DNA of 64,000 nt from IMG/VR virus record IMGVR_UViG_3300021400_000932. One strand, 5' to 3'. This stretch comes from a virus. Lineage: Duplodnaviria; Heunggongvirae; Uroviricota; Caudoviricetes. Shown here piece after piece: positions 8,531 to 27,027 of this stretch. Numbering within the stretch: position 1 is the stretch's first letter; the number at the start of each line of letters is the position of its first letter. Below the pieces are notes generated by a model. That model saw only the letters and a list, made by a program, of their open reading frames with translations, was not told the DNA's origin and did not search any database. The position numbers and the translations under genes were made by a program.

Positions 8531-8539
8531 ACAAAAATA

Positions 8540-8578: not shown

Positions 8579-8585
8579 TATAGGA

Positions 8586-8831: not shown

Positions 8832-8847
8832 AATGGACCCCCTTCAA

Positions 8848-9198: not shown

Positions 9199-9244
9199 TT
9201 AGTAGTCACCTCTTTTTGTCATTTTCTTATTATAATAAACGATT

Positions 9245-9430
9245 CTATTTTGTATTTTCTGCAACTTCCGAGGAAAGCCAATTAGCAGTAGCTTCTCTAC
9301 AATGGCTTAGGTCTTCCCCACATTGATACTGCCGTTTGTATTTGCAATACTCGCATATATTTGCCCCATCACAAAGGAAATCAAGCATAGCATCAAAATC
9401 AAATGATTTGATTTTATCAAAATTAGTCAT
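9245..9430 (-). CDS. small Cys-rich protein
   Basis: 61 aa with CDGANICEYC...C...C. Confidence 0.4.
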   Translation of the reverse strand: MTNFDKIKSFDFDAMLDFLCDGANICEYCKYKRQYQCGEDLSHCREATANWLSSEVAENTK

Positions 9431-10844: not shown

Positions 10845-11055
10845 ACCTTATTTCTTCATCGTCGGCATGACAGCAAGGACAGAAGAAATAAAGACCCTCT
10901 TTGACTACAAGAACAGGTTTCGGTATTTGTTTCTCTATAGCAGCAACAGCTATCTTTTTCGCCTCAGCAATGGCAAAGCTATCACCAAGATACTCCACCT
11001 TTAATTCCTCAATCGCTTGTGGTAGTTCCATCCGATGTATCCTCCTCAAATTCAT
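10753..11055 (-). CDS. zinc-ribbon protein, CG(Q/R)(R/K)LDW family
   Basis: CPCCHADDEE...CTKCGQRLDWEK. Confidence 0.5.
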   Translation of the reverse strand: MNLRRIHRMELPQAIEELKVEYLGDSFAIAEAKKIAVAAIEKQIPKPVLVVKEGLYFFCPCCHADDEEIRYDYCVPYDYCTKCGQRLDWEKREYIDEWPH

Positions 11056-11257
11056 CTGTCACATGGTTCGTATTTTCGCACATAGGACATTTACATTCCT
11101 TGACTGTGCCATTGTAAATTCGCATAAAACCATCAGACTTTATGGTATACTCTCCGTATTCGGCTATATAAACACACCCGCAAGCACAACAAGTAAATTC
11201 AGTAGGAACTAATTTCGGCTTTTTAAGTATTTTCATAGTGCGTCCTCCGTCATACAA
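11009..11257 (-). CDS. small Cys-rich protein
   Basis: CCACGC...C..CPMC. Confidence 0.45.
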   Translation of the reverse strand: MYDGGRTMKILKKPKLVPTEFTCCACGCVYIAEYGEYTIKSDGFMRIYNGTVKECKCPMCENTNHVTDEFEEDTSDGTTTSD

Positions 11258-11628
11258 AGTAATTCATCCTGATACAGACTGCAATATTCTTTAGCTACAC
11301 ACTTTTTACATTCCCCCAACCATATTTCTTCACAATGTAGGCCACAATCATTTACCAAAAATAGCCTATCATCCGGATTTAGCCAATCCAGGCAATAAGA
11401 CTCCCCACTATCATTGTATCTTGAATCGGCGAGTGGAAACCTAGTTGCTTCGAGATGTAGAAAATCTACATCATCAAGAAACCAGAGTGCTTCCGATTTT
11501 GCCTTTCCTCTGGTTGGTGCAAAGGCAACAACACAGTTAAACCCATTCCTCTCACGCACCATCCAAGCCTTCATATGTTCTTCACCTCTACACCTTGTAA
11601 AGTATCCTGCGCATTCGACGCCAACCAC
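11233..11628 (-). CDS. hypothetical Cys-rich protein
   Basis: 131-aa ORF. Confidence 0.45.
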   Translation of the reverse strand: MVGVECAGYFTRCRGEEHMKAWMVRERNGFNCVVAFAPTRGKAKSEALWFLDDVDFLHLEATRFPLADSRYNDSGESYCLDWLNPDDRLFLVNDCGLHCEEIWLGECKKCVAKEYCSLYQDELLCMTEDAL

Positions 11629-11846
11629 TTATACAGTCGAGATTGACAAGTTGCCGGACTGCTGATTTTAATACTTTGACAATCAGTAAAACCATTCCGA
11701 CAATCCTCATAACAAGGACAATGTTCGCAATTAGTCCACCGGTACATAAAATCTGCAAAAACACCGGATGTCAGTTCAGCACCGTTCAAGATTCTAAACA
11801 AATCACCCAATGTTGTATTCTTCATCTTATCGAAATTTGTCATCAT
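11571..11846 (-). CDS. hypothetical protein
   Basis: 91-aa ORF. Confidence 0.4.
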   Translation of the reverse strand: MMTNFDKMKNTTLGDLFRILNGAELTSGVFADFMYRWTNCEHCPCYEDCRNGFTDCQSIKISSPATCQSRLYKWLASNAQDTLQGVEVKNI

Positions 11847-11850
11847 AGCA

Positions 11851-12240
11851 TCAACACATCTTGAAATTATCTATATCCTGTTCATCATCTCGTTCGAAAT
11901 GAACAACTTCCGGAAGTTTATAGTAGCTAAAACTACCTCTTTTATCTCCGAATACTGTACGGATAGCTTGGTACACATCCCAAACTTTGTCGGCATTTTC
12001 AAACTTGCCGATACCATATGAATGACCTCTACCAAACAACTCCGGATAAATATACTTGCGAGCTTCAAGAAGAAGTTCATCAGCTTTCTCTCTGCGCTCC
12101 AAGTATTCATCCGAATTGATGGTAAGACTAAGAAGTTCATATGGAATTTCCGTGAACTGACCCATAAAAACGCGAGCATAAAACTCACAAGCATGTCCAA
12201 GCAATTTGGCTTGTTTATCTGTTAGAGTAATCTGTATCAT
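11851..12240 (-). CDS. hypothetical protein
   Basis: 129-aa ORF. Confidence 0.45.
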   Translation of the reverse strand: MIQITLTDKQAKLLGHACEFYARVFMGQFTEIPYELLSLTINSDEYLERREKADELLLEARKYIYPELFGRGHSYGIGKFENADKVWDVYQAIRTVFGDKRGSFSYYKLPEVVHFERDDEQDIDNFKMC

Positions 12241-12256
12241 AATAGTTTATCCCTTT

Positions 12257-12517
12257 CTAAGTTTCCGCATCTTCCGAATCCCATAAATCAGAATAAGGAG
12301 AAAGCAAGTTGCTCCAGAAATTCCAACCATAGTCAACTTCGCTTTCAAGCCACTTTCTTCTGCAGTCGTCACACATATCCCGTTCACAGTCATCAAAACA
12401 TTGGCAATAGAAAGTTGCTTCCTGGAAACATCCTAGTACGCTACCTTTCTCTACAAATGCGATAAACTTTGCTACCTCATCTGCTGTGAGAGATTGTAAC
12501 ATTTCAAGATTTGTCAT
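12257..12517 (-). CDS. hypothetical Cys-rich protein
   Basis: 86-aa ORF. Confidence 0.4.
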   Translation of the reverse strand: MTNLEMLQSLTADEVAKFIAFVEKGSVLGCFQEATFYCQCFDDCERDMCDDCRRKWLESEVDYGWNFWSNLLSPYSDLWDSEDAET

Positions 12518-12527
12518 ATTATTACCT

Positions 12528-12926
12528 TTAATCCTTGTTCTGTCTGAGAGATTTACCGCAAATAGGACAGTAGTTTATCTTTGACTGCAACCCATTTGAA
12601 CTGCCGCCATGTATATCATATCCATATGCGATAATAACAGGTCCGGTTGGTTCTGTTTCTTGCTTTATGGCGATGCCGACGTCATTAGTCTTTCCGATTA
12701 CCAATGGTTCTGCCCCATCACAGTAGGGGCAAGGCTGGCTATCTGATTCGGAAATCTTTTGTTCTACCCAAGCCATTTCTTTATCATGAATCTCATTAAT
12801 CATCTGCACTCTGACACCTGTGCTCACATTGGCAATCCGCAAAATATTATCTACTGACTCCAAAAGATGATTAAGCAAAGTTTCTATGCCATCGACCATA
12901 CTCTTATTGTTCATCTTTAACCTCAC
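12528..12926 (-). CDS. zinc-finger protein
   Basis: CPYCDG...CPICGK. Confidence 0.45.
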   Translation of the reverse strand: MRLKMNNKSMVDGIETLLNHLLESVDNILRIANVSTGVRVQMINEIHDKEMAWVEQKISESDSQPCPYCDGAEPLVIGKTNDVGIAIKQETEPTGPVIIAYGYDIHGGSSNGLQSKINYCPICGKSLRQNKD

Positions 12927-13134
12927 AACTTCTCATATTCCAAGCATCTACTGCTTCTTCTCTTGTTTTATATGCTTTGGTGGTAACACCACAATCTGTA
13001 CACTCACCCCTATACCCACCATAGACGTGGTGTTCATCAAATGGATTATTTATATACCTTGCTTGTGTCCACCTGCTACCGCAAAATGGACAAGGCTTTA
13101 ATTCAGATGCATCATTCATTTTCGCATGCTGCAT
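12904..13134 (-). CDS. zinc-ribbon protein
   Basis: CPFCGS...CTDCGV. Confidence 0.45.
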   Translation of the reverse strand: MQHAKMNDASELKPCPFCGSRWTQARYINNPFDEHHVYGGYRGECTDCGVTTKAYKTREEAVDAWNMRSCEVKDEQ

Positions 13135-13345
13135 ATTTTAAATATTCCTCCTGAGAAATAGACACAATGTTACTACTGCCTTTAACATACTCAGTGTGAC
13201 ACTCTGGACATCGGATGGTAGAACGCACACCAAGAGTTTTATAATTTATGAATTCAATTTCATCGAAAACAAATATACAACCGCAAGGACAACTTGCTTT
13301 ATAATACTTGTGCGGTTCTTTTTCTCTGTGTTTAATAACTACCAT
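13112..13345 (-). CDS. zinc-ribbon protein
   Basis: CPCGC...CPEC. Confidence 0.45.
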   Translation of the reverse strand: MVVIKHREKEPHKYYKASCPCGCIFVFDEIEFINYKTLGVRSTIRCPECHTEYVKGSSNIVSISQEEYLKYAACENE

Positions 13346-13362
13346 ATTGTAGCCCCCTTAGT

Positions 13363-13554
13363 TTATTTGTTATTTGGTATGTCTGAATCTGGAAGTTCAT
13401 GAATAGGACAATCCTCAAGTCTATCACAACAAAACTGGTCATAGCATTCTCTGTCCAACCGAGAACAAATGCGTCGTGAATAACTGTTTACATAAGAAAA
13501 CTGACATTCGTAGCACTCTTTCGGGACTTCCATATCTTCAATCCACACAGCCAT
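13363..13554 (-). CDS. small Cys-rich protein
   Basis: 63-aa ORF. Confidence 0.35.
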   Translation of the reverse strand: MAVWIEDMEVPKECYECQFSYVNSYSRRICSRLDRECYDQFCCDRLEDCPIHELPDSDIPNNK

Positions 13555-13575
13555 TTATTATCACCAAAGTACCTT

Positions 13576-13992
13576 TCATTGTTCAGTATAATCTTTATCT
13601 AAATATCGCCATCTCATTGGGACTACTGCCTTATCATCATGGAAAAATTCACTTGGCATATATCCAACATGGTCACTAACTTCTTTGATAATTCCATAAA
13701 GTTTTATTGTCGATATATTGAGAATAGAAAATCCGTTAATGTCATAGTTTATCCCAACGCACACACACTCTCCGAATATTAACCCCTTGGGAGAAAGCGG
13801 TCTATCCGATGTAGGATAGTAAAATGAAATATCTCCGACACTATCTTCATTACAATAGAGAAAACATTTAAACGGTGTCTTAATTTCTATCTTATCCGGC
13901 AAAACGATAACATGATATTTTTCGGCGATATCATATTCCGCTACGTCAATGTTGACCATTAGGCATTTCCGGTCAGATTCTTTTACAGCCAT
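13576..13992 (-). CDS. hypothetical protein
   Basis: 138-aa ORF. Confidence 0.45.
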   Translation of the reverse strand: MAVKESDRKCLMVNIDVAEYDIAEKYHVIVLPDKIEIKTPFKCFLYCNEDSVGDISFYYPTSDRPLSPKGLIFGECVCVGINYDINGFSILNISTIKLYGIIKEVSDHVGYMPSEFFHDDKAVVPMRWRYLDKDYTEQ

Positions 13993-14270
13993 TATTCATC
14001 CTCACCCCAATCAAGTTTCTGCCCACAATGACTACAGAATGGGTCATGATGAAAAATCAAACGACCACAAGCCGGACACTGTATATCCCCACAAACCTTG
14101 GTTTTGCGTATAGGCTTTTGAGGACTGTTAGACTGATTTGCATGAATGACTAATTTATCCACCGCACGACGGATTTCTTTTATCATTTCCGAAATCTTTG
14201 TGATAACCAATATGAAACAGATAATCAATACCGACACGGCTATGAATAAAATAAGACCAAGTAATTCCAT
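13992..14270 (-). CDS. membrane-anchored zinc-ribbon protein, CGQKLDW family
   Basis: N-terminal hydrophobic helix LLGLILFIAVSVLIICFILVI; C-terminal CPACGRL...CSHCGQKLDW. Confidence 0.5.
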   Translation of the reverse strand: MELLGLILFIAVSVLIICFILVITKISEMIKEIRRAVDKLVIHANQSNSPQKPIRKTKVCGDIQCPACGRLIFHHDPFCSHCGQKLDWGEDE

Positions 14271-14279
14271 AATTAAACC

Positions 14280-15212
14280 TCACACATAAGATATTTCCAT
14301 AGTGGCTGCAGCATCCGGACATAAAAGAGAATATCCGAAAAATGAATAAATCCCTGTGTTTTCGAACTGCTTGTCAATCAGTCTTTCATAATCCACATGA
14401 ACAGGGCCAAATCTAATCATCTCTAATGCAAACCTGTTGTCCATACCAACAATTACAGGGTATGGCATATTTGGACAAATAATTATCTTGGTATCTCCGC
14501 AATAGTAATTGTTATCTTTGAGTGTGATTGCCGAACCTAAATAATTCTGCAGTGATTCAAGCTCAGAAGATGAACAAATCATAGTTGATAATTTATATCC
14601 GTTTTTAGCATATAGTGATTTTGTAAATTTAGTTATGATACTATGTATATTATGTTTACCGACACATTCACAATCATTAAGCAGTTCCACAGCAGCAACA
14701 AGCTGGCATTTTGAAATATAACAACCAATTTGTTGTAATACCTTAGTTAATGTGGAGATTCTTTGAAATCTCAATGGTTCATATGCTGCATTAAGATTTC
14801 TGCCACATTTTCTTCTTGTGACTAAATCATGGTATGTACGCATACGCAATGATGCTTGTTTGTTATCCGATTCAGTATAAACGGAGCGGTAATCCATTCC
14901 ATTTGCATCAATAGTGTTTGCAACAATGTCCTGCACAACACTATTTTCATCAATGCCGATTTGTACACATCTTCTTACATACTCAGGGAACAGAACCGCT
15001 GAGTTGCTTGTTGCGAAGAATTTCTCTACTGTGTCGCTACTATTGCCACTTACTTTAATGTCAAATCTCTTTAGCTGGCGTGAAAAAGCATCCAAATCCT
15101 GTAAAGTTGTTCCATAGTAATTCTCGGATGGGTCCATGCTTTCTAATACATCGCTAAGGTTTCCGGCTTCATACATACCCTTTTCTAAAGTTATGCTATC
15201 AAAATTACTCAT
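14280..15212 (-). CDS. hypothetical protein
   Basis: 310-aa ORF. Confidence 0.5.
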   Translation of the reverse strand: MSNFDSITLEKGMYEAGNLSDVLESMDPSENYYGTTLQDLDAFSRQLKRFDIKVSGNSSDTVEKFFATSNSAVLFPEYVRRCVQIGIDENSVVQDIVANTIDANGMDYRSVYTESDNKQASLRMRTYHDLVTRRKCGRNLNAAYEPLRFQRISTLTKVLQQIGCYISKCQLVAAVELLNDCECVGKHNIHSIITKFTKSLYAKNGYKLSTMICSSSELESLQNYLGSAITLKDNNYYCGDTKIIICPNMPYPVIVGMDNRFALEMIRFGPVHVDYERLIDKQFENTGIYSFFGYSLLCPDAAATMEISYV

Positions 15213-15215
15213 AAA

Positions 15216-15503
15216 TTACTCCTCCCCAATCATCATAGGTGGAGTATCGTTTTTAAACCACCCTATTGACTGTTCTCCGGTCTCAGTATTCGTAAGAATC
15301 TCTACAGTACAATCTTCATGCCTTTCAACCACATTGAACATATTTGTCATTACGGTCGTGCGGTTATAAAGATATGGACACAAGACATCTTCTCCAAAGT
15401 AATCTGAATACCACTTCCGTCCTTCCTCTATGTCCTTATACATATAACAAACATCTTTATGACTGCAATGTTGACATATTTTCTTATTCATTAGATGTGC
15501 CAT
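15216..15503 (-). CDS. hypothetical protein
   Basis: 95-aa ORF. Confidence 0.4.
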   Translation of the reverse strand: MAHLMNKKICQHCSHKDVCYMYKDIEEGRKWYSDYFGEDVLCPYLYNRTTVMTNMFNVVERHEDCTVEILTNTETGEQSIGWFKNDTPPMMIGEE

Positions 15504-15513
15504 AGTTTATACC

Positions 15514-15804
15514 TCAATCTGTGTCATTTTGGGGTCTGTCATATTTTGATTTTAACCATGCTTGAAACTCTTCACGGTGTTCATCTGCGAACTTCTCGAA
15601 CTCTTCGGGTAGAGGTGTATAGCAAGAGGATGCCGCCATAGCAGACCTCTCCCAAAAGTTAGATTGCTTAGGTTCGCACATTCGCAGGAAAGTTCGCAGC
15701 ACTAAATCCATTGCCCTATCAGACTGTTGTTCTAAAATAGTATGTTGTAATTTCGCAGTTTCATCAGCAGCGTAAACACCACCAGAAGTATCAGAATTAA
15801 ACAT
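15514..15804 (-). CDS. hypothetical protein
   Basis: 96-aa ORF. Confidence 0.4.
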   Translation of the reverse strand: MFNSDTSGGVYAADETAKLQHTILEQQSDRAMDLVLRTFLRMCEPKQSNFWERSAMAASSCYTPLPEEFEKFADEHREEFQAWLKSKYDRPQNDTD

Positions 15805-15812
15805 ATTATCAC

Positions 15813-16151
15813 CTACCTGTCATATTCAGTATCACAGAATTCGCATCGGTTACTGTGTAATGGAGCTCCGCAGTTCTTACAATTTGTGAGTTTCGGAATC
15901 ATATTTTTAGTTGTTGGGACATCTGACACATCCCTCTCTTCTATACAACGATTTAGATAATGAATAAGGAACCCATTACCGCCGAGGTCTTTATAAATTT
16001 TTACATAATCGACTTCAGAATCATCGCAATCTTCTCTTTGCTTTTCTTCGTATTCTTTCGCCTTGAATCCGATGTGCAAATCTACAAAAACCGCAATTAT
16101 TATGATTATCAAAATTATGGACAGCAAAATGCCCCATACTATGTTAGTCAT
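15813..16151 (-). CDS. membrane-anchored zinc-ribbon protein (paralog of 2026..2241)
   Basis: N-terminal transmembrane helix ILLSIILIIIIIAVFV; C-terminal CKNCGAPLHSNRCEFCDTEYD. Confidence 0.55.
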   Translation of the reverse strand: MTNIVWGILLSIILIIIIIAVFVDLHIGFKAKEYEEKQREDCDDSEVDYVKIYKDLGGNGFLIHYLNRCIEERDVSDVPTTKNMIPKLTNCKNCGAPLHSNRCEFCDTEYDR

Positions 16152-16153
16152 AA

Positions 16154-16513
16154 TTACACCGCCACATCATCCGAAAGCAATTTTGTATTGTCATTATGCA
16201 CCTGCTCAAGATACGACAAAACAGACATAACCTTTTTATACATCTGTAAAAGTTCTTTATCATCTTGCACGATATCGCACTCCGCGCAGTTCCTATCACA
16301 TTTAAGTATGCCGGACTGACGCGATACACATTCATACTCATAGCTGAGTAACTTTTTAATACGACCAACATCTGTTCCGAGATTGCAAAGAAACCGATAG
16401 TTTTCCAACCATCGGCGTAACTGACGATGTTCTTCGCCACAAGCAGAACAATCTTCTTTTTCTTTGCAATGCTCGATTGCTTCATCTATCGTCATAAGCA
16501 TATTTTCAGTCAT
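16154..16513 (-). CDS. hypothetical Cys-rich protein
   Basis: 119-aa ORF. Confidence 0.4.
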   Translation of the reverse strand: MTENMLMTIDEAIEHCKEKEDCSACGEEHRQLRRWLENYRFLCNLGTDVGRIKKLLSYEYECVSRQSGILKCDRNCAECDIVQDDKELLQMYKKVMSVLSYLEQVHNDNTKLLSDDVAV

Positions 16514-16522
16514 TGGAAAACC

Positions 16523-16849
16523 TCATTTTTGTAATCTCGGTGTTATGCAAATATTATCGCCGGAGCCGCTGTTTTCACTAACAACAATATACTCAACACC
16601 GTACTCATTATCAGTAAGAACAGAAACCATGTAATATTTAGGATACTCCGGTTCAGACATCGTAAATGATGAATTTGTTGTAGCATCCACCTTACTTACT
16701 GAACAAGCACCAAGGAAGAATGCTAATAAAAACACGGCGACCAACAAGCAGGCGATTAAGACACGGATAAATTTAGGTTTCATTGTACTCCTCCGATAGC
16801 AATTCTGGATTATCATATATGTTCCCAAGAAATTCATAGATGCGACCAC
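16523..16849 (-). CDS. predicted lipoprotein (start likely internal Met MKPKF)
   Basis: Signal peptide with lipobox: MKPKFIRVLIACLLVAVFLLAFFLGAC. Confidence 0.5.
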   Translation of the reverse strand: MVASMNFLGTYMIIQNCYRRSTMKPKFIRVLIACLLVAVFLLAFFLGACSVSKVDATTNSSFTMSEPEYPKYYMVSVLTDNEYGVEYIVVSENSGSGDNICITPRLQK

Positions 16850-17216
16850 TTCCGATAGAACTAAAAGTCACAATATTATTCACATACTCAATTCGCCATT
16901 GGCAATTCTCTGCATTGTAACATATCTTCCCAATAGGCTGATAATAGGAAGTAACTGTTTCCCTTACAATGTCACCACCGAACAACTTTCTACCACTCTT
17001 GTCAACAAGACCGGTGAATGCGGATAGAGTATCTTTGTCGATAAACTCATAATCCCACAGTTCGCTTACACACATCTCACCACCGGACTTGACAATACAG
17101 TGATAAAATTCTTCACTGACAGCATCTTGGACATAGATGTAATGACCCTCAATCCACTCATTATTGTCAAGTCGCTTTGCGCGAAAAAGGATTCCACTCA
17201 TTTTGTATTCCACCAC
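16773..17216 (-). CDS. YopX-like protein
   Basis: N-terminal ILFRAKRLDNNEWIEGHYIY matches the YopX-family N-terminal signature. Confidence 0.5.
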   Translation of the reverse strand: MVEYKMSGILFRAKRLDNNEWIEGHYIYVQDAVSEEFYHCIVKSGGEMCVSELWDYEFIDKDTLSAFTGLVDKSGRKLFGGDIVRETVTSYYQPIGKICYNAENCQWRIEYVNNIVTFSSIGSGRIYEFLGNIYDNPELLSEEYNET

Positions 17217-17497
17217 TGAAAATTAGTTCTTTCATAATGTCTATCGAGATATTCTTGGTCGCATACTGTAAAACAGCCAGGACTATCACGGATGATGTAA
17301 TCATTCTCAAAAACAATGCTTCGAGGTTTAAGGACACACAGTTCTTTCGTCTTAGTGCCATCCTCACTCTGCAATGTAAAAAATCTTATGTATTTTCCGC
17401 AAAAACGCTTCAATTCGTCTTTGTTTTCACCTGTCCACTGTAAGACCTTTACTGCGACTTTGCGCTTCTCTCTATAAAATATTACCATATCAACCAC
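17198..17497 (-). CDS. hypothetical protein
   Basis: 99-aa ORF. Confidence 0.4.
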   Translation of the reverse strand: MVDMVIFYREKRKVAVKVLQWTGENKDELKRFCGKYIRFFTLQSEDGTKTKELCVLKPRSIVFENDYIIRDSPGCFTVCDQEYLDRHYERTNFQWWNTK

Positions 17498-17505
17498 CGC
17501 TTAAT

Positions 17506-17958
17506 TCAGAAAAGCATCTCTTCAAGCCTGCGTGCTTTTTCCTCAGCTTGTTTCAGCCAGGTTTCATATCTATCCAGCCAATAACCTCGTTCCATAGAGA
17601 GCATTTCCAGCAACTCTTCATCGCTTGCATCGGACAAAGGCAAATGTCCGCTACAACGTGCAGACTCAGTAATTGTATCTGAATCAAACCAAACCCAACC
17701 CTCACAAACACCGACCAGGGTAAAGCCGTACTTTCCGAACAAATTTGGATATTTGGTATCCCAACCCAAGGCTGGGCTGCTCTGATTAACTGCATCAAGC
17801 AGTTCTTGTCTTGTCATATATTTCATAGTATTACTCTTCCAACAGACTCCCAATCGAAGCTGCGGTATTCTGAGCAAGTTTGACATCAACTTCACTCGGA
17901 ACCTGAATCCTATCGTCTGCAAGCAGAACAACCGAACCATAAACATCGCCATTTGCAA
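17506..17958 (-). CDS. hypothetical protein
   Basis: 150-aa ORF; its N-terminus overlaps the next gene, so the true start is probably internal. Confidence 0.4.
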   Translation of the reverse strand: MQMAMFMVRLFCLQTIGFRFRVKLMSNLLRIPQLRLGVCWKSNTMKYMTRQELLDAVNQSSPALGWDTKYPNLFGKYGFTLVGVCEGWVWFDSDTITESARCSGHLPLSDASDEELLEMLSMERGYWLDRYETWLKQAEEKARRLEEMLF

Positions 17959-18367
17959 TAATCGGAATCACCAAAGATGCCGGTCGGCAATTAGCATCGA
18001 ATGTCGGACGAACGACATTATCATGACTGTATGTGTATTGTCTTCTGCTTTCGATGACAGTTTCGAGTTCATTTGAGATAGTCTGTTCAATGTATTGTCG
18101 CTTACTTACTCCGGAAACAGCTACTACTGAGTCTCTGTCAGTAATCAAAACAGAGTGCGAACTTAGCGATTCAAGTACATTTGCAAACTTGCCGACAAAA
18201 GATGATAGAGAACTGATTGGATGATACTTCTTGTAAATAATAGCACCATCCTCAACATAGATTTCCAGAGGGTCACCCTCTCTAATCCTTAAAGAACGGC
18301 GTATCTCCTTCGGAATTATAACTCTCCCGAGGTCATCAATTCTACGAACAATTCCGGTTGCTTTCAT
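17831..18367 (-). CDS. spoVT: SpoVT-like transcriptional regulator (AbrB-type N-terminal domain + GAF-like C-terminal domain)
   Basis: 178 aa. N-terminal MKATGIVRRIDDLGRVIIPKEIRRSLRIREGDPLEIYVE closely resembles Bacillus SpoVT (recalled from memory, not database-checked). Length and two-domain layout also match. Confidence 0.75.
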   Translation of the reverse strand: MKATGIVRRIDDLGRVIIPKEIRRSLRIREGDPLEIYVEDGAIIYKKYHPISSLSSFVGKFANVLESLSSHSVLITDRDSVVAVSGVSKRQYIEQTISNELETVIESRRQYTYSHDNVVRPTFDANCRPASLVIPIIANGDVYGSVVLLADDRIQVPSEVDVKLAQNTAASIGSLLEE

Positions 18368-18379
18368 GATATATACTCC

Positions 18380-18709
18380 TTATTCAAAAGTTTCTGTCAA
18401 AGATAGAACATAAGTCAGCAGATTTTCGGCATCAATCAGCTTACACACTATGCCCATATCCTCTGCTGTTGTAACACTATGTCCATACCAAATTTCTGCT
18501 TTTTCTACATAGCGCTTTGCCTTAGCTAAGGAATCTCGGAAATCCTCAATGGTCTTAACTTCATCACATTTCTTGATTAAAATGCCATCCTCAGCAGCAC
18601 AAAATTCAAATTCATCATTTGTCCTAAGACCTAGTGACTTTCGGATATCTTCTGGAATCTGGATTCTTCCTGTAGCATCAATATGCCTTGTTACTGGTGC
18701 ATCTTTCAC
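18380..18709 (-). CDS. AbrB/MazE-family (SpoVT-AbrB swapped-hairpin) DNA-binding protein
   Basis: N-terminal TRHIDATGRIQIPEDIRKSLGLRTNDEFEF. Confidence 0.6.
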   Translation of the reverse strand: MKDAPVTRHIDATGRIQIPEDIRKSLGLRTNDEFEFCAAEDGILIKKCDEVKTIEDFRDSLAKAKRYVEKAEIWYGHSVTTAEDMGIVCKLIDAENLLTYVLSLTETFE

Positions 18710-19056
18710 ATTACTACCACCTTTCCATTAGCATACTGCGTTGCACACATCCCCACACATTGAGGTGTGCTATAGTGCTTATCCCCATATCTCTTTGTAC
18801 ACACATACCGTGTATCGAACCAACCGGTTCTGCTATCCGAGATGACAGAACTTCCGATAACCAAATCCCCCGCATCGAATAACCTACAGTTACCAAAGTT
18901 ACCCTGAGTAGCAACGATGTGTGCAAACATCTCTTCCTTTGTGTTGAATTCCTTTGCTTCACTCATGGATTCGGCTAACCCACCTCTGTGCGGTCTATAG
19001 ATATACATTAAGACACCTACCTCACAGACAACCACCAATGGATTGTAGATAGGCAA
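18706..19056 (-). CDS. hypothetical protein
   Basis: 116-aa ORF. Confidence 0.4.
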   Translation of the reverse strand: MPIYNPLVVVCEVGVLMYIYRPHRGGLAESMSEAKEFNTKEEMFAHIVATQGNFGNCRLFDAGDLVIGSSVISDSRTGWFDTRYVCTKRYGDKHYSTPQCVGMCATQYANGKVVVM

Positions 19057-19282
19057 TTTTACAACCCTCTTGTAATCTTATGGTTGTTCCATCTGGATTT
19101 TTTATGAATACCTTAGTATTATCTAACGATGCTAACTGCGATAATGCTCGTTCTGCATTTCTTACAATCATTTCATTGTGTGCAATAAAAGATAACGGTA
19201 TGGCTGCATCAGAACTTTTCTTGGCGGTATCTGGATTCTCAGCAACATTAAGGTCGTTTAAGATGTTATCTAATCTCGACAT
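19022..19282 (-). CDS. hypothetical protein
   Basis: 86-aa ORF. Confidence 0.35.
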   Translation of the reverse strand: MSRLDNILNDLNVAENPDTAKKSSDAAIPLSFIAHNEMIVRNAERALSQLASLDNTKVFIKNPDGTTIRLQEGCKIAYLQSIGGCL

Positions 19283-19309
19283 TTTACTTCTCCCTCAGTA
19301 TCATCAGCA

Positions 19310-19807
19310 CTATCTAAAGTGATTTCCACCGTTGACAATTTCGTAAATATACTCATCAACATATTCCCCAGAAGGTGCTCTCACAGCTTCATGCAGTTTT
19401 ACAATGTTGCCACCATAATGATGACAAAACTTATCATAGTGCCTTTTTACAGAGTTTCCGGCAATCATATGCCATTCGACACGATGGTGTGATTGCACTA
19501 ATTCTTTCATCTTTTTAAGAATATCTCTACCAACGATAGGATTACCACGGTCGAACGAATACAGACCGAAGTTATGTATAGTATCGCTAAGTGTGCTAAG
19601 CTGGTAAGATAAGTAGCCGATAAGTTGCTGACCATCAGGCTTGCTGCTGTCAATTATGGCATACTGAAATGAGAAATCTTCACACTTTATTTCTGGAATA
19701 TACGCAGACCCATCATACCCAATGTAGTAGAAAAAATCTTGTGTATATAACTGTTCCTTGAATTTACATTCAATATCATCTTTATAAAGAATTGCAGGCC
19801 TGAGCAT
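19310..19807 (-). CDS. hypothetical protein
   Basis: 165-aa ORF; weak GNAT-like RGNPIVGRDILKKM motif only. Confidence 0.45.
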   Translation of the reverse strand: MLRPAILYKDDIECKFKEQLYTQDFFYYIGYDGSAYIPEIKCEDFSFQYAIIDSSKPDGQQLIGYLSYQLSTLSDTIHNFGLYSFDRGNPIVGRDILKKMKELVQSHHRVEWHMIAGNSVKRHYDKFCHHYGGNIVKLHEAVRAPSGEYVDEYIYEIVNGGNHFR

Positions 19808-19833
19808 ACAAAACCTCCTCGCATGAATTATCT

Positions 19834-20133
19834 CTAACCGGAAGATAGAATACGCAAATCCATCTTCATCCCTTGGTCATCGGGGATTCTGATAAATTTT
19901 CCATAGTTATCCACAGATAACTCATCCTTATCTCCATACCAACAACCATAGCATACACCATATGCTTTTTGATATCTGTTCCAAAACACGCGACCAACTG
20001 TAGAAGATGAAATGATTTCTACCATATCGCCTGTTATGATTTCTCTGTTTTGTGAGTCATATATTCCAGTCGGAATTCCGACATTCTCTCGTTTATCTCT
20101 CGGAATCGGTCTATATTTCTTTTTATCCGGCAT
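19834..20133 (-). CDS. hypothetical protein
   Basis: 99-aa ORF. Confidence 0.4.
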   Translation of the reverse strand: MPDKKKYRPIPRDKRENVGIPTGIYDSQNREIITGDMVEIISSSTVGRVFWNRYQKAYGVCYGCWYGDKDELSVDNYGKFIRIPDDQGMKMDLRILSSG

Positions 20134-20144
20134 TCTTTACTCCT

Positions 20145-20342
20145 TCAACTCTTCACACTCGATATTGCCTTTAATGCAGTATGATGATACAAATGACCAT
20201 CAGCACAAAGAATAAATGCGTCTTTATCTTCGATAGAGATATTACATATTTCTTCTTGTCTGTATATCGGACTTTTACCACCGTGTTCAATAATCAGAAC
20301 CTTGTCACCGGCATTCAACTTCTTAATGTCCGAAAACCTCAT
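20145..20342 (-). CDS. hypothetical protein
   Basis: 65-aa ORF. Confidence 0.35.
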   Translation of the reverse strand: MRFSDIKKLNAGDKVLIIEHGGKSPIYRQEEICNISIEDKDAFILCADGHLYHHTALKAISSVKS

Positions 20343-20376
20343 AATCCATCCCTCTGTTTCGATATAAAAGAATACA

Positions 20377-20754
20377 TTAATCTTGTATCCCTCTGGATTC
20401 TTCGTCTAACACCTTTAGAATAAACTTTAATGCATCCATTATAGTGCTAAGTTCGCTATCGCCGCCAAGAACTACTTCGAATCCGTCCTCTCCAACATCC
20501 GTACAGGAATCAATAAGTTGTACTTCAATATCTGTACTTGCGAGGTCATGAATACGAAAATACGTGCGTCCTCCATGTCCCGAATCTCCGCCCATATAAC
20601 CGGTGGTACCAGCCTCTACTTCGAGCATATTGGCACCAAATATTACACGACTATAAGTTGTAATTGCTTTTCCATCCGGCAATGTGCGTACATCTTTTTT
20701 AATTTCATACATTTTAATTCCCCTCCAGTTTATTTGTATTTTCCCAACCATCAA
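20377..20754 (-). CDS. hypothetical protein
   Basis: 125-aa ORF. Confidence 0.4.
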   Translation of the reverse strand: MMVGKIQINWRGIKMYEIKKDVRTLPDGKAITTYSRVIFGANMLEVEAGTTGYMGGDSGHGGRTYFRIHDLASTDIEVQLIDSCTDVGEDGFEVVLGGDSELSTIMDALKFILKVLDEESRGIQD

Positions 20755-21115
20755 AGATATTGCCTATAACTTCGAGGTACTGCGAATTCCATAAAGCATC
20801 TGAATCAGGACAAGGATGTTTGTCCTCTAAGGCATATAAATCCCAGCCTGCAAAATACTGTGAGCTGAGCCACACAACGGAGCAAGCTCTGCCATGCTGA
20901 GTACGAACAACATCACCTTCAAAAATAGGAGTTCCAAACTTATCATTTCGACCGGTATATTCACACACAGATTCCGGAATGATTTCATACGGAGAATCAA
21001 ATTCTTGTGTTTCTGTATCAATGTGGGTAATCTGCTGTTCTTTGGTAAACACACCGCAAGCAGGAAGTCCTTGTATCCACTGCTTATTGTCTTTCCTCTT
21101 TGCCCTGATTGACAC
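20714..21115 (-). CDS. YopX-like protein (second paralog), GTG start abutting the IS right end
   Basis: MSIRAKRKDNKQWIQG parallels the other YopX-like N-terminus; the start codon GTG at 21113-21115 lies ~5 nt from the IS terminal hairpin. Confidence 0.5.
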   Translation of the reverse strand: MSIRAKRKDNKQWIQGLPACGVFTKEQQITHIDTETQEFDSPYEIIPESVCEYTGRNDKFGTPIFEGDVVRTQHGRACSVVWLSSQYFAGWDLYALEDKHPCPDSDALWNSQYLEVIGNIFDGWENTNKLEGN

Positions 21116-21116
21116 T

Positions 21117-21300
21117 CCACACGACTAAAGTCGTGGGATTCTTGCTTCAACGACTACGGCGAGCGTTTTACTCAAAGAGTTCAGCTCGACTTACACAATC
21201 TCCACAAGCTAGATTAAAGAGTTCCCGTGTGCCCCACGGTGCTCTGTGTATTAATAGAGGTTAAGCTATCATAGCCAACCCTTTAGTTAATATATTCATA
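21117..21300 (-). ncRNA. putative TnpB omega/right-end guide RNA (3' end of tnpB plus right end)
   Basis: Structured ~145-nt right-end segment downstream of the tnpB stop, ending in the terminal hairpin; by analogy to characterised IS605 TnpB systems. Confidence 0.4.
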
Positions 21301-22355
21301 GCGGCATTGACATCTCTGTCGTGATACTCTCCGCACTCGGGGCAAGTCCACTTTCGTATAGCTAAATTCTTAACTAATGGATTTTTATATCCGCACTTGT
21401 TACACAACTGACTGCTCGGATAGGTAGTAGGCACTCTCTGTACTGTCCTGCCGTACCAGGCAGCTTTGTATTCAAGCATTGTAAAAAACTTAGACCACGA
21501 AGCGGAGGATATACTTTTAGCCAGCTTGTGATTTTTGAGCATATTTTTGATTTTCAAGTCTTCTACACAGATTACTTGGTTTTCGTTAATCAGTGTAGTT
21601 GAAAGCTTTTGCAAAAAATCATTTCGCTGATTAGATACCTTCTCGTGGACTTTAGCTACTCTTAGTCGTTGCTTATCTCTGTTATGGGAGTCAACCTTCT
21701 TTCTGGAAAGTTTTCTTTGTTCTCTGCGTAATTTTCTTTGTGTTCGTTCTAACCTTTTGTGATTAGGTACAGAATTACCGTTACTGTCGGAATAGAAATC
21801 TTTTATGCCGACATCTATACCAATAACGGAATCTATTCTGTCTAAAGGTTGAGGTTCAAAGTCAATGTTAAGAACAGCAAAATACTTTCCTGTAGGTGTT
21901 CTCTCTACAGTAACATTATTAATATGACCTATATTCATTGACTGTTTGACTTTAATATAGCCAAGCTTTGGTAACTTTAGTTTATTGCCGTCAATGCGAA
22001 TATTATTACCTTGATTAAGAGTTCTGTAACTCTGGCGATGGTTATGTTTACTTTTGAAACAAGGATATCTGCCTAACTTCTTAAAGAAGTTTTGATACGC
22101 TCGGTCTAAATCCCTGAGAGATTGTTGCAGAGCAATACTATCAACTTCCTTAAGAAAGGAAAAGTCATCTTGCATTTTCATAGAGGTGAGCATAGCAGAA
22201 GTAGCGGTATAGTTAGCTTTATTACCTAACTTGTATTGTTCAATTCTGTATGCTAAACCTTTGTTGTAAATGAATCGAACACAACCAAGAGTGCGGTTTA
22301 TTATGTTTTGCTGTTCCCGATTGGGATAGATACGAAACTTTACACCTTTGTTCAT
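21261..22355 (-). CDS. tnpB: TnpB (IS605 OrfB-family RNA-guided nuclease)
   Basis: 364 aa; RuvC-like motifs ([10 protein letters not shown]) and C-terminal zinc finger CNKCG...CPECG. Confidence 0.85.
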
Positions 22356-22364
22356 TACAAACTC

Positions 22365-22781
22365 CTATGGTCTTGTTTTCTGGGTATTTACATACCACTG
22401 TATTGTTTCAGAGCTTACATTACCGGCAGTAGAAACAAAGTAACTTCTAGTCCAAAGACTAGGCATAGCACTGAGTTCGTTAAATTCTTTGCGAAGTATC
22501 ACTGAGGATGCACCTTTAATGTATTGCATGATTTGTGGAATTGATTGTGTAGGTAAAGCACTTACAAAAATATGAACGTGGTCTACATGACATTCTAAAG
22601 CAAGAATTTCAATCTTTTGTTTTTTGCACACCGCTAAGGTTAATTCCTTGAACCGTTCTTCAACTCCTTTAATATTGAAGATTTTTCTACGGTAGCGAGG
22701 GCAAAATACAAAATGATAGTTAATCAATGATACTGTTGTTTTTGTGTGTTTATATATATTCTTCATATATATATTATACAA
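22365..22781 (-). CDS. tnpA: TnpA (IS200-like Y1 HuH transposase)
   Basis: INYHFVFCPRYRRKIF and HVDHVHIFVSALP (HuH) motifs; ~130 aa. Confidence 0.85.
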   Translation of the reverse strand: MYNIYMKNIYKHTKTTVSLINYHFVFCPRYRRKIFNIKGVEERFKELTLAVCKKQKIEILALECHVDHVHIFVSALPTQSIPQIMQYIKGASSVILRKEFNELSAMPSLWTRSYFVSTAGNVSSETIQWYVNTQKTRP

Positions 22782-22797
22782 CTATGAATAGATGTAG

Positions 22798-23217
22798 TCA
22801 AGAAATACATCTACTAATTTTAAGAATATTTGCGGCTATCATCCCACAGCTAAAGCAATAGGTTTTCTCACCGCAAGAAATTATAAGAAAATTCTCTACT
22901 TCTTGATGTTCGTCAAGATATTTTTGAATTTCATCACCCCTGTTTCCGGTAGAAACATATGGGGTTCGACCGAGTATCTTAACACCATCCCAAAGACCGC
23001 CATTGACAAGACAATCCTTGTAGTTATTATCGAATCGCCATGTACTTGTCACAACAATAGCATACCCACATTCCTCGCAGAATTTGGATACCCATTGGAC
23101 AGCTTGGAAGTTATTTACTTTATTATCTCCGGAATGATTAAACCGGCAGTGCTTACCGATATCATCCCACATAGGAGTATTCACAACTCCATCATAGTCT
23201 AAAAACAGGACATTCAT
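22798..23217 (-). CDS. HAD-superfamily phosphatase-like protein (C-terminus possibly remodelled by IS insertion)
   Basis: N-terminal MNVLFLDYDGVVN matches HAD motif I (DxDGV). The last codons SRCIS-stop are encoded by the 5' arm of the IS left-end hairpin. Confidence 0.55.
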   Translation of the reverse strand: MNVLFLDYDGVVNTPMWDDIGKHCRFNHSGDNKVNNFQAVQWVSKFCEECGYAIVVTSTWRFDNNYKDCLVNGGLWDGVKILGRTPYVSTGNRGDEIQKYLDEHQEVENFLIISCGEKTYCFSCGMIAANILKISRCIS

Positions 23218-23354
23218 TCTTTGTTATCCCTTTCCTCTTTCTTAGCTCTTGTAAGCATGAGAAGTACAATAGACAGAATCACTTGAACAATAGTTAAGAT
23301 TGTCTGAAAGAAGTTTACCATCAATATAAGAAAGGAGAAATTTCCTTCGGACAT
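23214..23354 (-). CDS. small hydrophobic membrane peptide (46 aa), not in ORF track
   Basis: Translated by hand: MSEGNFSFLILMVNFFQTILTIVQVILSIVLLMLTRAKKEERDNKE; the TGA stop overlaps the ATG of the downstream gene (ATGA). Confidence 0.45.
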   Translation of the reverse strand: MSEGNFSFLILMVNFFQTILTIVQVILSIVLLMLTRAKKEERDNKE

Positions 23355-23370
23355 CCACTTCGAAATATTA

Positions 23371-23529
23371 TCAAATAAGTTCATCGACGTCTTTACCTTG
23401 TTCTATAGATTTTATGATTGCATTTATGTTATGTACCCTAACAATGCACATTATGGCAACGCCAAAGAAACCGCCTACAAGTAAACCGATTAAACCGCCG
23501 ACAAGAAGTCCGGCCATAAAATCAGGCAT
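23371..23529 (-). CDS. small glycine-zipper membrane peptide (52 aa), not in ORF track
   Basis: Translated by hand: MPDFMAGLLVGGLIGLLVGGFFGVAIMCIVRVHNINAIIKSIEQGKDVDELI. Confidence 0.45.
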   Translation of the reverse strand: MPDFMAGLLVGGLIGLLVGGFFGVAIMCIVRVHNINAIIKSIEQGKDVDELI

Positions 23530-23547
23530 AATATCAACTCCAAACAA

Positions 23548-24069
23548 TCATTCATATGTTATGGTTCCCGATGTGATGGGAAAACCAGTTGATTCCTCGA
23601 TAGACTCACGTGTGTTGTTTATGAGTTCCTGTGTCATAGGCAGACAACCCCTATGCACAGCCGAAACCTTTGCATCATTCGGATGAATACCGAAAGGCAT
23701 TTTGAACTTCTTCGGCAGCACCCAAAGATGATATGTGTCTGTCATATCTACTAAACGATTTTCGGCAGGGAATACCTCTATGGCTACCCTATCCTCACCG
23801 AACAACTCATTCTTGATTTCCTGCTTGATTCTCCACGGAATGTCACCGGCACCGGAGTTGTCAAGAGATTTTGCAATGTCTCTATTTATCCGGATAATAG
23901 TAACATGTTCTACCTTACCGATTTCTGTTCCGATAAGTCTTGAACACACCTGAAAACCATCATTTGAATGCCAGCACCTATCCATCTTAGGCATCCAATC
24001 ACCACGGTATACATGCATTGTATCATTCAATGCTTTAGGAGATATTACATCTCTCCACACTCTCGCCAT
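23548..24069 (-). CDS. hypothetical protein
   Basis: 173-aa ORF. Confidence 0.5.
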   Translation of the reverse strand: MARVWRDVISPKALNDTMHVYRGDWMPKMDRCWHSNDGFQVCSRLIGTEIGKVEHVTIIRINRDIAKSLDNSGAGDIPWRIKQEIKNELFGEDRVAIEVFPAENRLVDMTDTYHLWVLPKKFKMPFGIHPNDAKVSAVHRGCLPMTQELINNTRESIEESTGFPITSGTITYE

Positions 24070-24105: not shown

Positions 24106-24702
24106 TTATAAAACGCTCAAGCACTCATCAATATATGCTTTAACCCGCAGACCAAACTCCTTAACTCGTTCGCAATATATAACCATCATCCTTTCGGTGA
24201 TTGTTTTATCTTCGCGTTCTAAGGCTTGCTTGATTAATCCTTGATTTGCAAGCATATTCCGCAATGTTTTATTAGAAATGGTATTCAGACCATCAATGAT
24301 GGCATCCAACAGTTCTCTATCGGACATTGTGATATGAGGATTAAATTTGCGTTTGCCTAATTCAGCAATCCCGTTACGTGTGTCCCAATAAATTGCAATT
24401 TTCGGCATCGACCTAATCCTATACTTATTACCGCAGTAGTTGTCCATCCACTCAGTATATGGCCAATGCTTATTTCTAACATAGATAGTGGAATTGAACA
24501 TCGGACTATCAATTTGCATAATGCTATAAAGTTGGATAAGATATAAATACATATCCAACCTTTTGCGTCGCATATGAATACCATTAGCTAAGTTGGTGTT
24601 TACAATATAACCGGCAATATCCAAAACTGTGTATATTCTGTGCTTAGACCTCACCTTTACCATTTCAGCTCGTTCATCAGCTTGCTTTACAAGATTAAGC
24701 AT
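24106..24702 (-). CDS. hypothetical protein
   Basis: 198-aa ORF. Confidence 0.5.
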   Translation of the reverse strand: MLNLVKQADERAEMVKVRSKHRIYTVLDIAGYIVNTNLANGIHMRRKRLDMYLYLIQLYSIMQIDSPMFNSTIYVRNKHWPYTEWMDNYCGNKYRIRSMPKIAIYWDTRNGIAELGKRKFNPHITMSDRELLDAIIDGLNTISNKTLRNMLANQGLIKQALEREDKTITERMMVIYCERVKEFGLRVKAYIDECLSVL

Positions 24703-25434: not shown

Positions 25435-27027
25435 TTATGTATTTGAAATGTCGGATACCTGTGTTGGGATATCTGTAGTAGGAACGTCATTCACATGAAC
25501 CGCTACATTATCACCGCCAAGTGCCTTAGCACCGAACAGACCGACAAGCAGGGACTTGAGGTCAAATCCCATAGATTCGCTCAGACCATCATTAACCTGA
25601 GTCAGTCCGTTGATAATCTGTCCGGTAAACTGACCTGCATCACCACCAAAAATCTTGATGGAATCAACAGAACTGAATCCACCTGCGATAGCCGAAGCAA
25701 TTTCCGGCAGCTTGTCAAAGTAGGCAACTGCCGCATCGAGAACCATCTGTTTCTGTGCAGCTTCGCCATACAGAGCCATAGCCTCAGCCTTTTCTTTCAA
25801 ACCTTCAGCCTCAGCAATCAGCTTAGCCTTTGCGGCCTCAGCCTCTGCATTACCTTTGGCGCGGATAGCATCAGCTTCTGCTAAACCAGCAGCACGAATA
25901 GCCTCTGCATCCTGTTCCTTTGCGAAACGTTCAGCCTCCGCAGATGCCTTTTTAGCCGATGCACTCTGCTGTGCCTCATACATCTGAGCATCTGCATCCT
26001 GCTGGCGCTTGTACTTCTCAGCTTCTGCATTACGCTGTTCTGTGTAAAGTTCAGCATCAGCTTCCTGCTGTGCAGCAAACTTATCAGCTTCTGCTTTCTT
26101 CTTGATTTCGGCTTCAAGTCTACGCTCAGTAATCTTTACCTCACGTTCTTCAAGTTCAATCTGCTTTTCCTGACGAGCAAGGTTCGCATCAGCTTCTGCA
26201 ATTTCCTTGGACTTGCGCTGATTCTCAGCCTCAATGCCCTTGGCCGCCTCTGCCTTTGCAATCTTGATGTCCTGCTGTTCCTTGAGTTCAGCCTGCTTGA
26301 TAGCAAGCGCATTCTCTTTAATAGCAATTTCAGTCTGGGCCGCAATCTCAGCATCATTAGCTTGCTTCTGTGCATCCGCCTGAGCAATAGCTACCTCTGC
26401 CCTTGCGCGTGCTGCAGCAATAGAGGCATCCTTTTTAATCTGTTCAGTATTCTCAATACCGAGATTGTCAATAACCCCATTCTGGTCAGAGAAGTTCTGA
26501 ATATTAAAAGTAGTGAGCTTAAGACCCATATCTCGAAGATTCGGACTGACATTCTCAGTAATCTTCTCAGCAAGTACTTTCTTATCTCCGCGAATTAAAT
26601 CAGTCAGCGGAATCTGAGAAATGATTTCACGAATGTTACCCTCTAAAATCGGGGTAATTTCAACCCGAATTTCTTCTGTAGTACGACCTAGGAATTTAGA
26701 AGCCGCAATCTTCAGAACCTCTGGGTCTTGGTCAATAGACATATTGGCTACAGCATCGACACGAATATTGATTGCATCCTGTGTCGGAATCTCACTCTTA
26801 GAAACAAAGTCAACCTGAATGTTTTCGAGTGACATAAAGTCCACTCTCTGAAAAAATGGGATTACAAATTTCGCCCTACCGATATAAGTCTTTGCACCTC
26901 TCGGACCAGTAACAACCATAGCTCGGTTGGGTGGGCATTTTCGATAGCACACCTTAAAGATAAGGACCAACAGAAAAAGAACTACAATGCCTGCGATAAC
27001 TGGGGTAAGAATTTGCCATGGAACCAT
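25435..27027 (-). CDS. flotillin-like SPFH/band-7 protein (FloT/YqiK-like)
   Basis: N-terminal transmembrane helix, SPFH core (NRAMVVTGPRGAKTYIGRAKFVIPFFQRVDFMSLENIQVDF), long Ala/Glu-rich coiled coil (AEAE repeats), C-terminal domain; 530 aa. Confidence 0.8.
   Translation of the reverse strand: MVPWQILTPVIAGIVVLFLLVLIFKVCYRKCPPNRAMVVTGPRGAKTYIGRAKFVIPFFQRVDFMSLENIQVDFVSKSEIPTQDAINIRVDAVANMSIDQDPEVLKIAASKFLGRTTEEIRVEITPILEGNIREIISQIPLTDLIRGDKKVLAEKITENVSPNLRDMGLKLTTFNIQNFSDQNGVIDNLGIENTEQIKKDASIAAARARAEVAIAQADAQKQANDAEIAAQTEIAIKENALAIKQAELKEQQDIKIAKAEAAKGIEAENQRKSKEIAEADANLARQEKQIELEEREVKITERRLEAEIKKKAEADKFAAQQEADAELYTEQRNAEAEKYKRQQDADAQMYEAQQSASAKKASAEAERFAKEQDAEAIRAAGLAEADAIRAKGNAEAEAAKAKLIAEAEGLKEKAEAMALYGEAAQKQMVLDAAVAYFDKLPEIASAIAGGFSSVDSIKIFGGDAGQFTGQIINGLTQVNDGLSESMGFDLKSLLVGLFGAKALGGDNVAVHVNDVPTTDIPTQVSDISNT

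Follow-up and report, generated by a model that had tools for sequence, protein, structure and literature searches.

Two short open reading frames (ORFs) lie side by side on the minus strand of a 64,000-nucleotide stretch of viral DNA (IMG/VR record IMGVR_UViG_3300021400_000932, Caudoviricetes; hereafter the window), between a HAD-like gene (HAD_SAK_2) and the gene at 23548..24069 (DUF7694). We refer to them as pep1 (23371..23529, 52 amino acids) and pep2 (23214..23384, 56 amino acids). A preliminary description, made from the letters of this DNA, had placed here a 52-amino-acid glycine-zipper peptide and a 46-amino-acid hydrophobic peptide with a charged C-terminus, both too short for a 60-amino-acid ORF cut-off. 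ORF listing and translation confirmed the first of these, and at 52 and 56 amino acids both ORFs indeed fall below the cut-off. Both products had been taken to be transmembrane (TM) peptides; hydrophobicity and AlphaFold2 (AF2) models agreed with this, predicting a single helix, and hence a single membrane pass, for each.

The ORF of pep1 starts with the ATG at 23529, stops at 23371 and encodes MPDFMAGLLVGGLIGLLVGGFFGVAIMCIVRVHNINAIIKSIEQGKDVDELI. Between the TGA of the DUF7694 gene and this ATG there is a GGAG box (23541..23538), 8 nt from the ATG. The ATG and the GGAG/GGGGG box are kept across relatives; the TTG at 23547, from which the ORF list starts pep1, is not conserved. After an acidic N-terminus of three residues (MPD), the predicted TM segment extends approximately from residue 4 to residue 30 (a hydrophobic stretch of about 27 residues; best 19-mer -6.7 kcal/mol on the Wimley-White scale and 2.49 on the Kyte-Doolittle scale). 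It contains a five-glycine GxxxG zipper, G7-G11-G15-G19-G23, with additional glycines at positions 12 and 20. The IMC containing C28 is invariant in pep1 homologues. The tail (R31...GKDVDELI) is conserved and amphipathic; it includes R31, H33 and K40 and ends in the motif GKDxDEL. The AF2 model of pep1 is one helix of residues 2-51 with a predicted local distance difference test score (pLDDT) of 80. By inspection, pep1 shows no lipobox or signal-peptidase site: C28 is preceded by I-M, not L-[AS]-[GA], and there is no positively charged n-region. Three distant homologues, P0020, P0022 and P0023, are shorter by exactly 4 residues inside the zipper, and the GxxxG register (G7, G11, G15, G19) is retained in them. 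Because the register survives an indel of exactly 4 residues, the periodicity itself appears to be under selection.

The predicted product of pep2 is MNLFDNISKWMSEGNFSFLILMVNFFQTILTIVQVILSIVLLMLTRAKKEERDNKE, beginning with MNLFDNISKWMSEGN from the ATG at 23384. The 46-amino-acid version of the preliminary description corresponds to 23214..23354, beginning at an internal methionine; the ORF and its charged tail were borne out, whereas the start, and with it the length, had to be revised. The start of pep2 is most likely the ATG at 23384, since M1 is invariant among homologues, the methionine at 23354 is replaced by valine (GTG) in locus L008, and the upstream motif MNxFDxxxxW is kept. The ten residues bearing this motif are conserved at about 60% identity, including in locus L022, in which pep1 and pep2 overlap by just 4 nt. 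Gene callers took the upstream ATG in most loci; in a few clusters they began two codons before it. The predicted TM segment covers residues 16-44 approximately (a hydrophobic stretch of about 29 residues; Wimley-White, -12.5 kcal/mol), preceded by a 15-residue N-terminus of net negative charge and followed by a highly charged C-terminal tail, TRAKKEERDNKE, with five K/R and four D/E. Within the helix, N24, Q27, Q34 and S38 are invariant even at about 60% identity and form a polar stripe roughly on one helical face. The AF2 model of pep2 is one helix of residues 3-55 with a pLDDT of 84. No signal peptide or lipobox was seen in pep2 by inspection, and there is no N-terminal hydrophobic segment.

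The genes are tightly packed. pep1 and pep2 overlap out of frame by 14 nt (23371..23384, minus strand), forming a translational-coupling junction; the same 14-nt overlap is found in L008, L009, L015-L019, L021 and L103, and the overlap in L022 is the 4-nt ATGA. At the other end, the TGA of pep2 shares three bases with the ATG of HAD_SAK_2 in an ATGA (23214..23217, minus strand), so that the tight coupling with the downstream gene previously reported held up; this junction is conserved in every pep2-carrying locus. Within the tail codons of pep2, before HAD_SAK_2, there is an A/G-rich, Shine-Dalgarno-like stretch, AGAGGAAAGGG (23238..23228). On the coding strand between the DUF7694 and HAD genes, no promoter-like or terminator-like sites were found. 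At the level of gene layout, pep1 and pep2 were shown to be translationally coupled inside a long co-directional operon. We also considered that the two ORFs might represent a single frameshifted gene with two TM domains (TMDs). This was rejected: there are two ORFs with their own stop and start in every lineage, including L021 and L022.

A hydrophobic short ORF by itself is no evidence for a gene. In the six frames of the window there are 118 ATG-initiated ORFs of 45-65 amino acids, and 30 of them contain a 19-mer with a Kyte-Doolittle value of at least 1.6; in this AT-rich DNA such ORFs often arise by chance. Given this background, and the lack of a family annotation, pep1 and pep2 could have been spurious ORFs in a noncoding spacer, or in a segment with recent or merely regulatory conservation. 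To distinguish the frames we used the ratio pN/pS (nonsynonymous to synonymous differences per site, Nei-Gojobori counts over distinct sequences), with the first 50 codons of the adjacent HAD gene as the control. The ratio was 0.23 for pep1 and 0.27 for pep2 in the claimed frames and 0.17 for the HAD gene, so that in-frame purifying selection on the two ORFs equals that on their neighbor; in other frames it was 0.8-2.5, save the antisense frame whose third codon positions coincide with those of the claimed frame. In comparison with the most distant loci, L021 and L022, dN/dS was 0.19-0.33 at pS 0.54-0.64; for pep2, dN/dS was 0.09-0.20. The frames are thus intact at a pS of about 0.6. The sole indel in the pep1 alignment, at 12 nt, keeps the frame. 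Conservation extends to the start codon and the Shine-Dalgarno box, as described above, and the ORFs were called independently on many contigs. The spurious-ORF explanation is therefore largely refuted, and we consider it very improbable.

Conservation of the reading frames in related phages was one of the points on which the earlier proposal could have failed. Intact copies of pep1 were seen in 17 loci (16 relatives in addition to the window) and of pep2 in 12 including the window, among them relatives with as little as 54-61% amino acid identity. Homologous protein clusters numbered 12 for pep1 (75-96% identity, mostly exactly 52 amino acids) and 7 for pep2 (84-96% identity). The order DUF7694, 52-amino-acid ORF, 56-amino-acid ORF, HAD_SAK_2, YopX, again with overlaps of 14 nt and 4 nt, is found in L008 (43 kb), L009 (from a 128-kb contig), L010, L015-L019 and L103. 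An intact pep2 homologue of about 60% identity is present in L021, where it had not been called, and in L022, where it had been called as a truncated ORF. Based on frame-specific purifying selection and on the frames being intact in relatives, pep1 and pep2 are, as judged by comparative analysis, real protein-coding genes under purifying selection.

On the opposite strand, an ORF (23414..23686, plus strand, 90 amino acids, rich in Pro, Thr and Ser) shares sequence with pep1 and with the end of the DUF7694 gene. This ORF was rejected as a gene: it mirrors the glycine codons and shows no frame-specific constraint, the antisense frames having pN/pS values of 0.84-2.5 save the one sharing third codon positions.

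Beyond these loci, relatives are few. A profile of pep1 searched against 1.84 billion representatives gave only 5 hits, with no more than three further relatives (P0020, P0022 and P0023), and a profile of pep2 run against 5.8 billion clusters brought back just the 7 already known. Scans of IMG/VR with both profiles gave no relatives, and neither peptide had a match in 50,697 phage records searched by tblastn. With blastn, the 2.5-kb region showed only a 175-bp match, to Enterocloster phage CB473P3, all of whose genes carry the annotation hypothetical. Neither peptide matched a known family above threshold in Pfam, PHROGs, NCBIfam or PADLOC. The best database match of pep1 was the Pfam family DUF3789 (PF12664; 18.6 bits, E = 0.0016), below the gathering cut-off of 22; the match aligns residues 13-30 of pep1 with profile positions 5-22 of 32 and covers the low-complexity Gly/Leu/Val core only. 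DUF3789 is itself a short, uncharacterised, glycine-rich TM family, and none of the papers searched mentions it. By these searches, both peptide families are orphans, confined to one narrow rumen phage clade whose longest related contig is 128 kb.

The two genes differ in how steadily they are kept. In the lineage represented by L011-L014 and L104, a clean 115-nt deletion has removed pep2 from codon 10 to approximately codon 48, leaving the remnant MNLFDNISQ*. pep1 is intact and under selection in this lineage, which has diversified into at least 3 distinct loci and possesses an extra gene of 101-109 amino acids upstream. Because pep2 has been deleted in a lineage that keeps pep1, pep2 is dispensable, and pep1 appears to be the core of the module. 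The extra gene, located between DUF7694 and pep1 (L011:2671-2976, L104:1147-1476, L022:2-232), is absent from the window; L022 carries both this gene (101 amino acids) and pep2, so the gene is not simply an alternative to pep2.

The constant downstream neighbor of the peptides is HAD_SAK_2 (22798..23217, minus strand; Pfam PF18143, 2.9e-16), a phosphatase-like gene that is intact in L008 and L103 (290-291 amino acids). In the window it has been cut after about codon 112 by an insertion sequence (IS), with the breakpoint at 22883 and loss of the region of the DDDSD motif. The IS200/IS605-family element (21109..22882, minus strand) contains tnpA, encoding a Y1 transposase (22365..22781), and tnpB (21261..22355); it replaces 516 bp found in L103 (otherwise about 95% identical) and in L008, and YopX, the next gene downstream, has lost its first codons. 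The C-terminus of HAD_SAK_2 is modular. An unrelated domain of 131 amino acids is fused to it in L008 (6313-7185) and L103, occurs as a separate ORF in L009 (10168-11036) and is absent in L021, and in the pep2-less L011 (3198-4151) and L013 (1779-2732) HAD_SAK_2 is fused to a SocA_Panacea domain that scores 33 bits (cut-off, 25.7), the fusion gene lying 39 nt beyond pep1.

Upstream of pep1 is the DUF7694 gene (23548..24069, minus strand; 173 amino acids; Pfam PF24746, 6.5e-15; phrog_7839), whose stop lies 18 nt before the ATG of pep1. Two genes upstream of pep1 there is a Panacea-like gene (24106..24702, minus strand; 198 amino acids) with a sub-threshold match to SocA/Panacea (19.8 bits against 25.7, profile positions 5-108 of 113). 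All 6 of its 6 orthologues match Panacea below threshold over nearly the full profile (best E = 1.2e-4). Alignment of this family with the Panacea domain of L011 by hhalign was weak (E = 0.024), and a PDB sequence search with the family gave nothing. The 198-amino-acid gene adjoins the DUF7694 gene, and the pair might be a toxin-antitoxin-like unit of their own. About 2 kb upstream of the peptides there is a variable moron, a flotillin gene (25435..27027, minus strand) encoding a 530-amino-acid SPFH protein with an N-terminal TM helix (Band_7, 2.9e-20; Flot, 1.4e-07); it is present in L009 and L010 and absent at the same position in L008 and L011.

The Panacea matches are a weak and indirect lead towards one possible function of the peptides, that of the membrane-depolarising toxins which the preliminary description had named beside holins. 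Kurata et al. 2022 (PMC8832971) report that small TM peptides are frequent among the predicted PanT toxins, that membrane depolarisation was seen with three validated toxins, and that PanA is also found in phages. Like PanT toxins, which are short TM peptides encoded next to a gene for a Panacea-domain protein, sometimes in phages, pep1 is a short TM peptide whose gene lies directly upstream of such a gene in L011 and L013. pep1, with or without pep2, could be a PanT-like membrane-depolarising toxin neutralised by a Panacea protein, either the upstream 198-amino-acid protein or, where pep2 has been lost, the HAD-Panacea fusion. The fusion directly downstream of pep1 and the consistent matches of the 198-amino-acid family speak for this. 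However, pep1 adjoins a bona fide Panacea domain, fused to HAD_SAK_2, in one lineage only, and the HAD protein is without it in the window, L008, L009, L021 and L103; the partner that pep1 always has is HAD_SAK_2 rather than Panacea. The sole Panacea-like gene in the window is sub-threshold, parted from pep1 by DUF7694 and only weakly alignable with the L011 domain, PADLOC gave no match, and the window strain keeps both peptides intact though the IS has destroyed the gene downstream. We consider a PanT-like system improbable. If it were true, with pep2 modulating pep1, the module would be a phage-borne toxin-antitoxin-like or anti-defence system, or an abortive-takeover switch, physically linked to an RNA-repair-type HAD phosphatase, and the swap of the HAD C-terminus together with the loss of pep2 would be an observed step of antitoxin exchange.

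A second class of toxin was compared with the peptides. Type I toxins of the Hok, Fst and TisB class are likewise about 50 amino acids long, with a single TM helix and a charged C-terminus, but they are stand-alone genes repressed by antisense or overlapping small RNAs, whereas pep1 and pep2 are coupled within an operon. A type I arrangement was rejected: the only strong antisense promoter-like site, at 23003..23030 (plus strand), is not conserved, its -10 hexamer varying in 8 related loci. Promoter-like sites showed no enrichment over shuffles, and there was no Rfam match at E <= 1.

The Pfam scan covered 93 ORFs across the window, giving complete lists of 12 and 17 families; the window represents about half of the phage genome. 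From approximately 32 to 64 kb it encodes DNA polymerase A, a clamp loader, DnaB, primase, RecA, a T4-like portal and a protein with a PHROG sheath-like match. From 1 to approximately 32 kb there are small accessory genes, including those for YopX, MazE/SpoVT-like, Lar, a PP-binding protein, DUF5662, HTH_39 and flotillin. The Pfam list for 1..21000 comprises PP-binding (acyl-carrier-like), Lar restriction alleviation, DUF7487 and AAA/ABC-type ATPase matches, the last probably from the only large plus-strand ORF (7025..8530, 501 amino acids), which is opposed to the rest of the window. Two small minus-strand genes, 13992..14270 (92 amino acids) and 15813..16151 (112 amino acids), encode proteins that begin with a strongly hydrophobic TM helix and carry a CxxC...CxxC zinc-ribbon at the C-terminus; the two may be paralogues that act as membrane-anchored factors. 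All relatives of this uncultured phage come from rumen metagenome assemblies, and the phage is most likely a large myovirus. Its host is probably a Gram-positive member of the rumen Clostridia, as suggested by the closest copies of the TnpB of the window, which are 83-84% identical in amino acid sequence and belong to metagenome-assembled genomes of rumen Ruminococcus.

This setting is relevant to the holin or antiholin label that the preliminary description had offered. In composition the label fits: both peptides are small proteins with at least one TMD and a charged, hydrophilic C-terminus. The other mark of a holin gene, position in a lysis cassette, is not seen in the window, where the neighbors of the peptides are DUF7694 and HAD_SAK_2 and where, among the ORFs scanned, there is no endolysin or holin Pfam family; similarity to a holin family is likewise lacking, as neither peptide matches one in Pfam or PHROGs at E <= 0.1. 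The two peptides could still be a holin and an antiholin, or a two-component holin, that time lysis from a site unlinked to the endolysin gene. The genes for the holin and endolysin of T4 are unlinked in this way, and the portal of the phage is T4-like. Such a role also agrees with the adjacency of two membrane peptides, each of them small, with a single TMD and a highly charged C-terminus.

The closest known parallel on that side is pinholin S21 68 of phage 21, also a small phage membrane protein with a GxxxG-type zipper and a charged C-terminus; there the glycine zipper packs helices on the way to a pinhole, a small depolarising pore (PMC9025707). S21 68 differs from pep1 in having two TMDs, with the zipper in TMD2, and in being encoded in a lysis cassette next to a signal-arrest-release (SAR) endolysin. 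pep1 has one TMD and a much longer zipper, with five glycines in register, shows no sequence similarity to S21 68 and is accompanied by no endolysin in the window. The accessory-gene setting (YopX, HAD_SAK_2, Lar, MazE/SpoVT-like), the coupling to a phosphatase-like gene, the free loss of pep2 and the very narrow clade, with 5 pep1 profile hits among all representatives searched, also argue against a holin. An essential lysis role is unlikely because relatives would then be expected in sister phages, yet the more distant DUF7694-anchored viral loci L001-L007, which were unusable for the conservation analysis, are without both peptides. Overall, we regard a role in the timing of lysis as quite unlikely.

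We tentatively favor a different function, which has a reasonable but far from assured chance of being correct: based on sequence features and structural models, pep1 and pep2 may be a co-translated, single-pass accessory module that acts on the host membrane as small pore-forming or depolarising effectors, and not a holin/antiholin pair of a lysis cassette. Their N-termini are acidic and K/R residues follow the helix, so that, by the positive-inside rule, each peptide would insert with its N-terminus outside and its C-terminus inside. The coat protein of phage Pf3 shows the same plan: with some 45-55 amino acids it lacks a signal peptide, and its single TM helix leads from an acidic N-terminus on the outside to a basic C-terminus on the inside. 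It is a virion protein of a filamentous phage without homology to the peptides, and the likeness is topological only. Via the glycine zipper and the polar stripe, the peptides would assemble in the host cytoplasmic membrane as homo- or hetero-oligomeric helix bundles, which would gate the membrane or disturb it; a glycine zipper plays this kind of part in pinholin S21 68 (PMC9025707). In such bundles pep1 would be central and pep2 would have a modulating, dispensable part. pep1, pep2 and HAD_SAK_2, in this order, form a conserved accessory module, which would serve in host manipulation.

Several points weigh against this proposal. Neither peptide matches a characterised family, and membrane proteins that form no pore can also have glycine zippers and polar stripes. 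The topology was judged by hand from the distribution of charges rather than by a trained predictor. As the family scan covers about half of the genome, there is a small chance that the peptides serve in lysis at a distance from the endolysin gene, in the manner of T4. Finally, the GKDxDEL tail of pep1, which P0020 retains, indicates a specific partner protein in the cytoplasm rather than a generic pore.

The last point leads to a further explanation: the peptides may not permeabilise the membrane but act there as anchored, specific regulators, early or accessory factors that bind a membrane protein of the host or of the phage. Such regulators could serve in superinfection exclusion, inhibit cell division or block a membrane-bound defence or transport protein. 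Precedents are Imm and Sp of T4, which act in superinfection exclusion, and gp56 of SPO1, which inhibits cell division; like pep1 and pep2, these are tiny membrane proteins encoded among accessory or takeover genes away from lysis genes, but they have no sequence relationship to the peptides. The location of pep1 and pep2 in a block of small accessory genes co-directional with replication genes, the presence of other small N-terminally anchored proteins (13992..14270 and 15813..16151) and the retention of the cytoplasmic tail of pep1 in P0020 at only 54% identity are in line with this explanation. On the other hand, the searches made revealed no homology of the peptides to known exclusion or takeover proteins, the analysis brought up no candidate partner, and one would sooner expect a five-glycine zipper and an N/Q stripe in bundles that assemble by themselves. 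Such regulators are the main competing explanation, if on balance an unlikely one.

In kind, the finding is already familiar, since small membrane peptides are well known from phage accessory regions, and unless the link to Panacea is real it is a routine, tidy correction of gene finding. What is new is two orphan families with clean motifs, under clear selection, from an uncultured rumen phage clade, together with a pep2-less lineage that serves as a natural 'knock-out' for pep2. Annotation cut-offs regularly pass over small membrane peptides of phages, although among these are holins, exclusion proteins and toxins on which the fate of an infection depends. If the link to Panacea is real, pep1 would be a membrane toxin tied to a hyperpromiscuous antitoxin domain inside a lytic phage.

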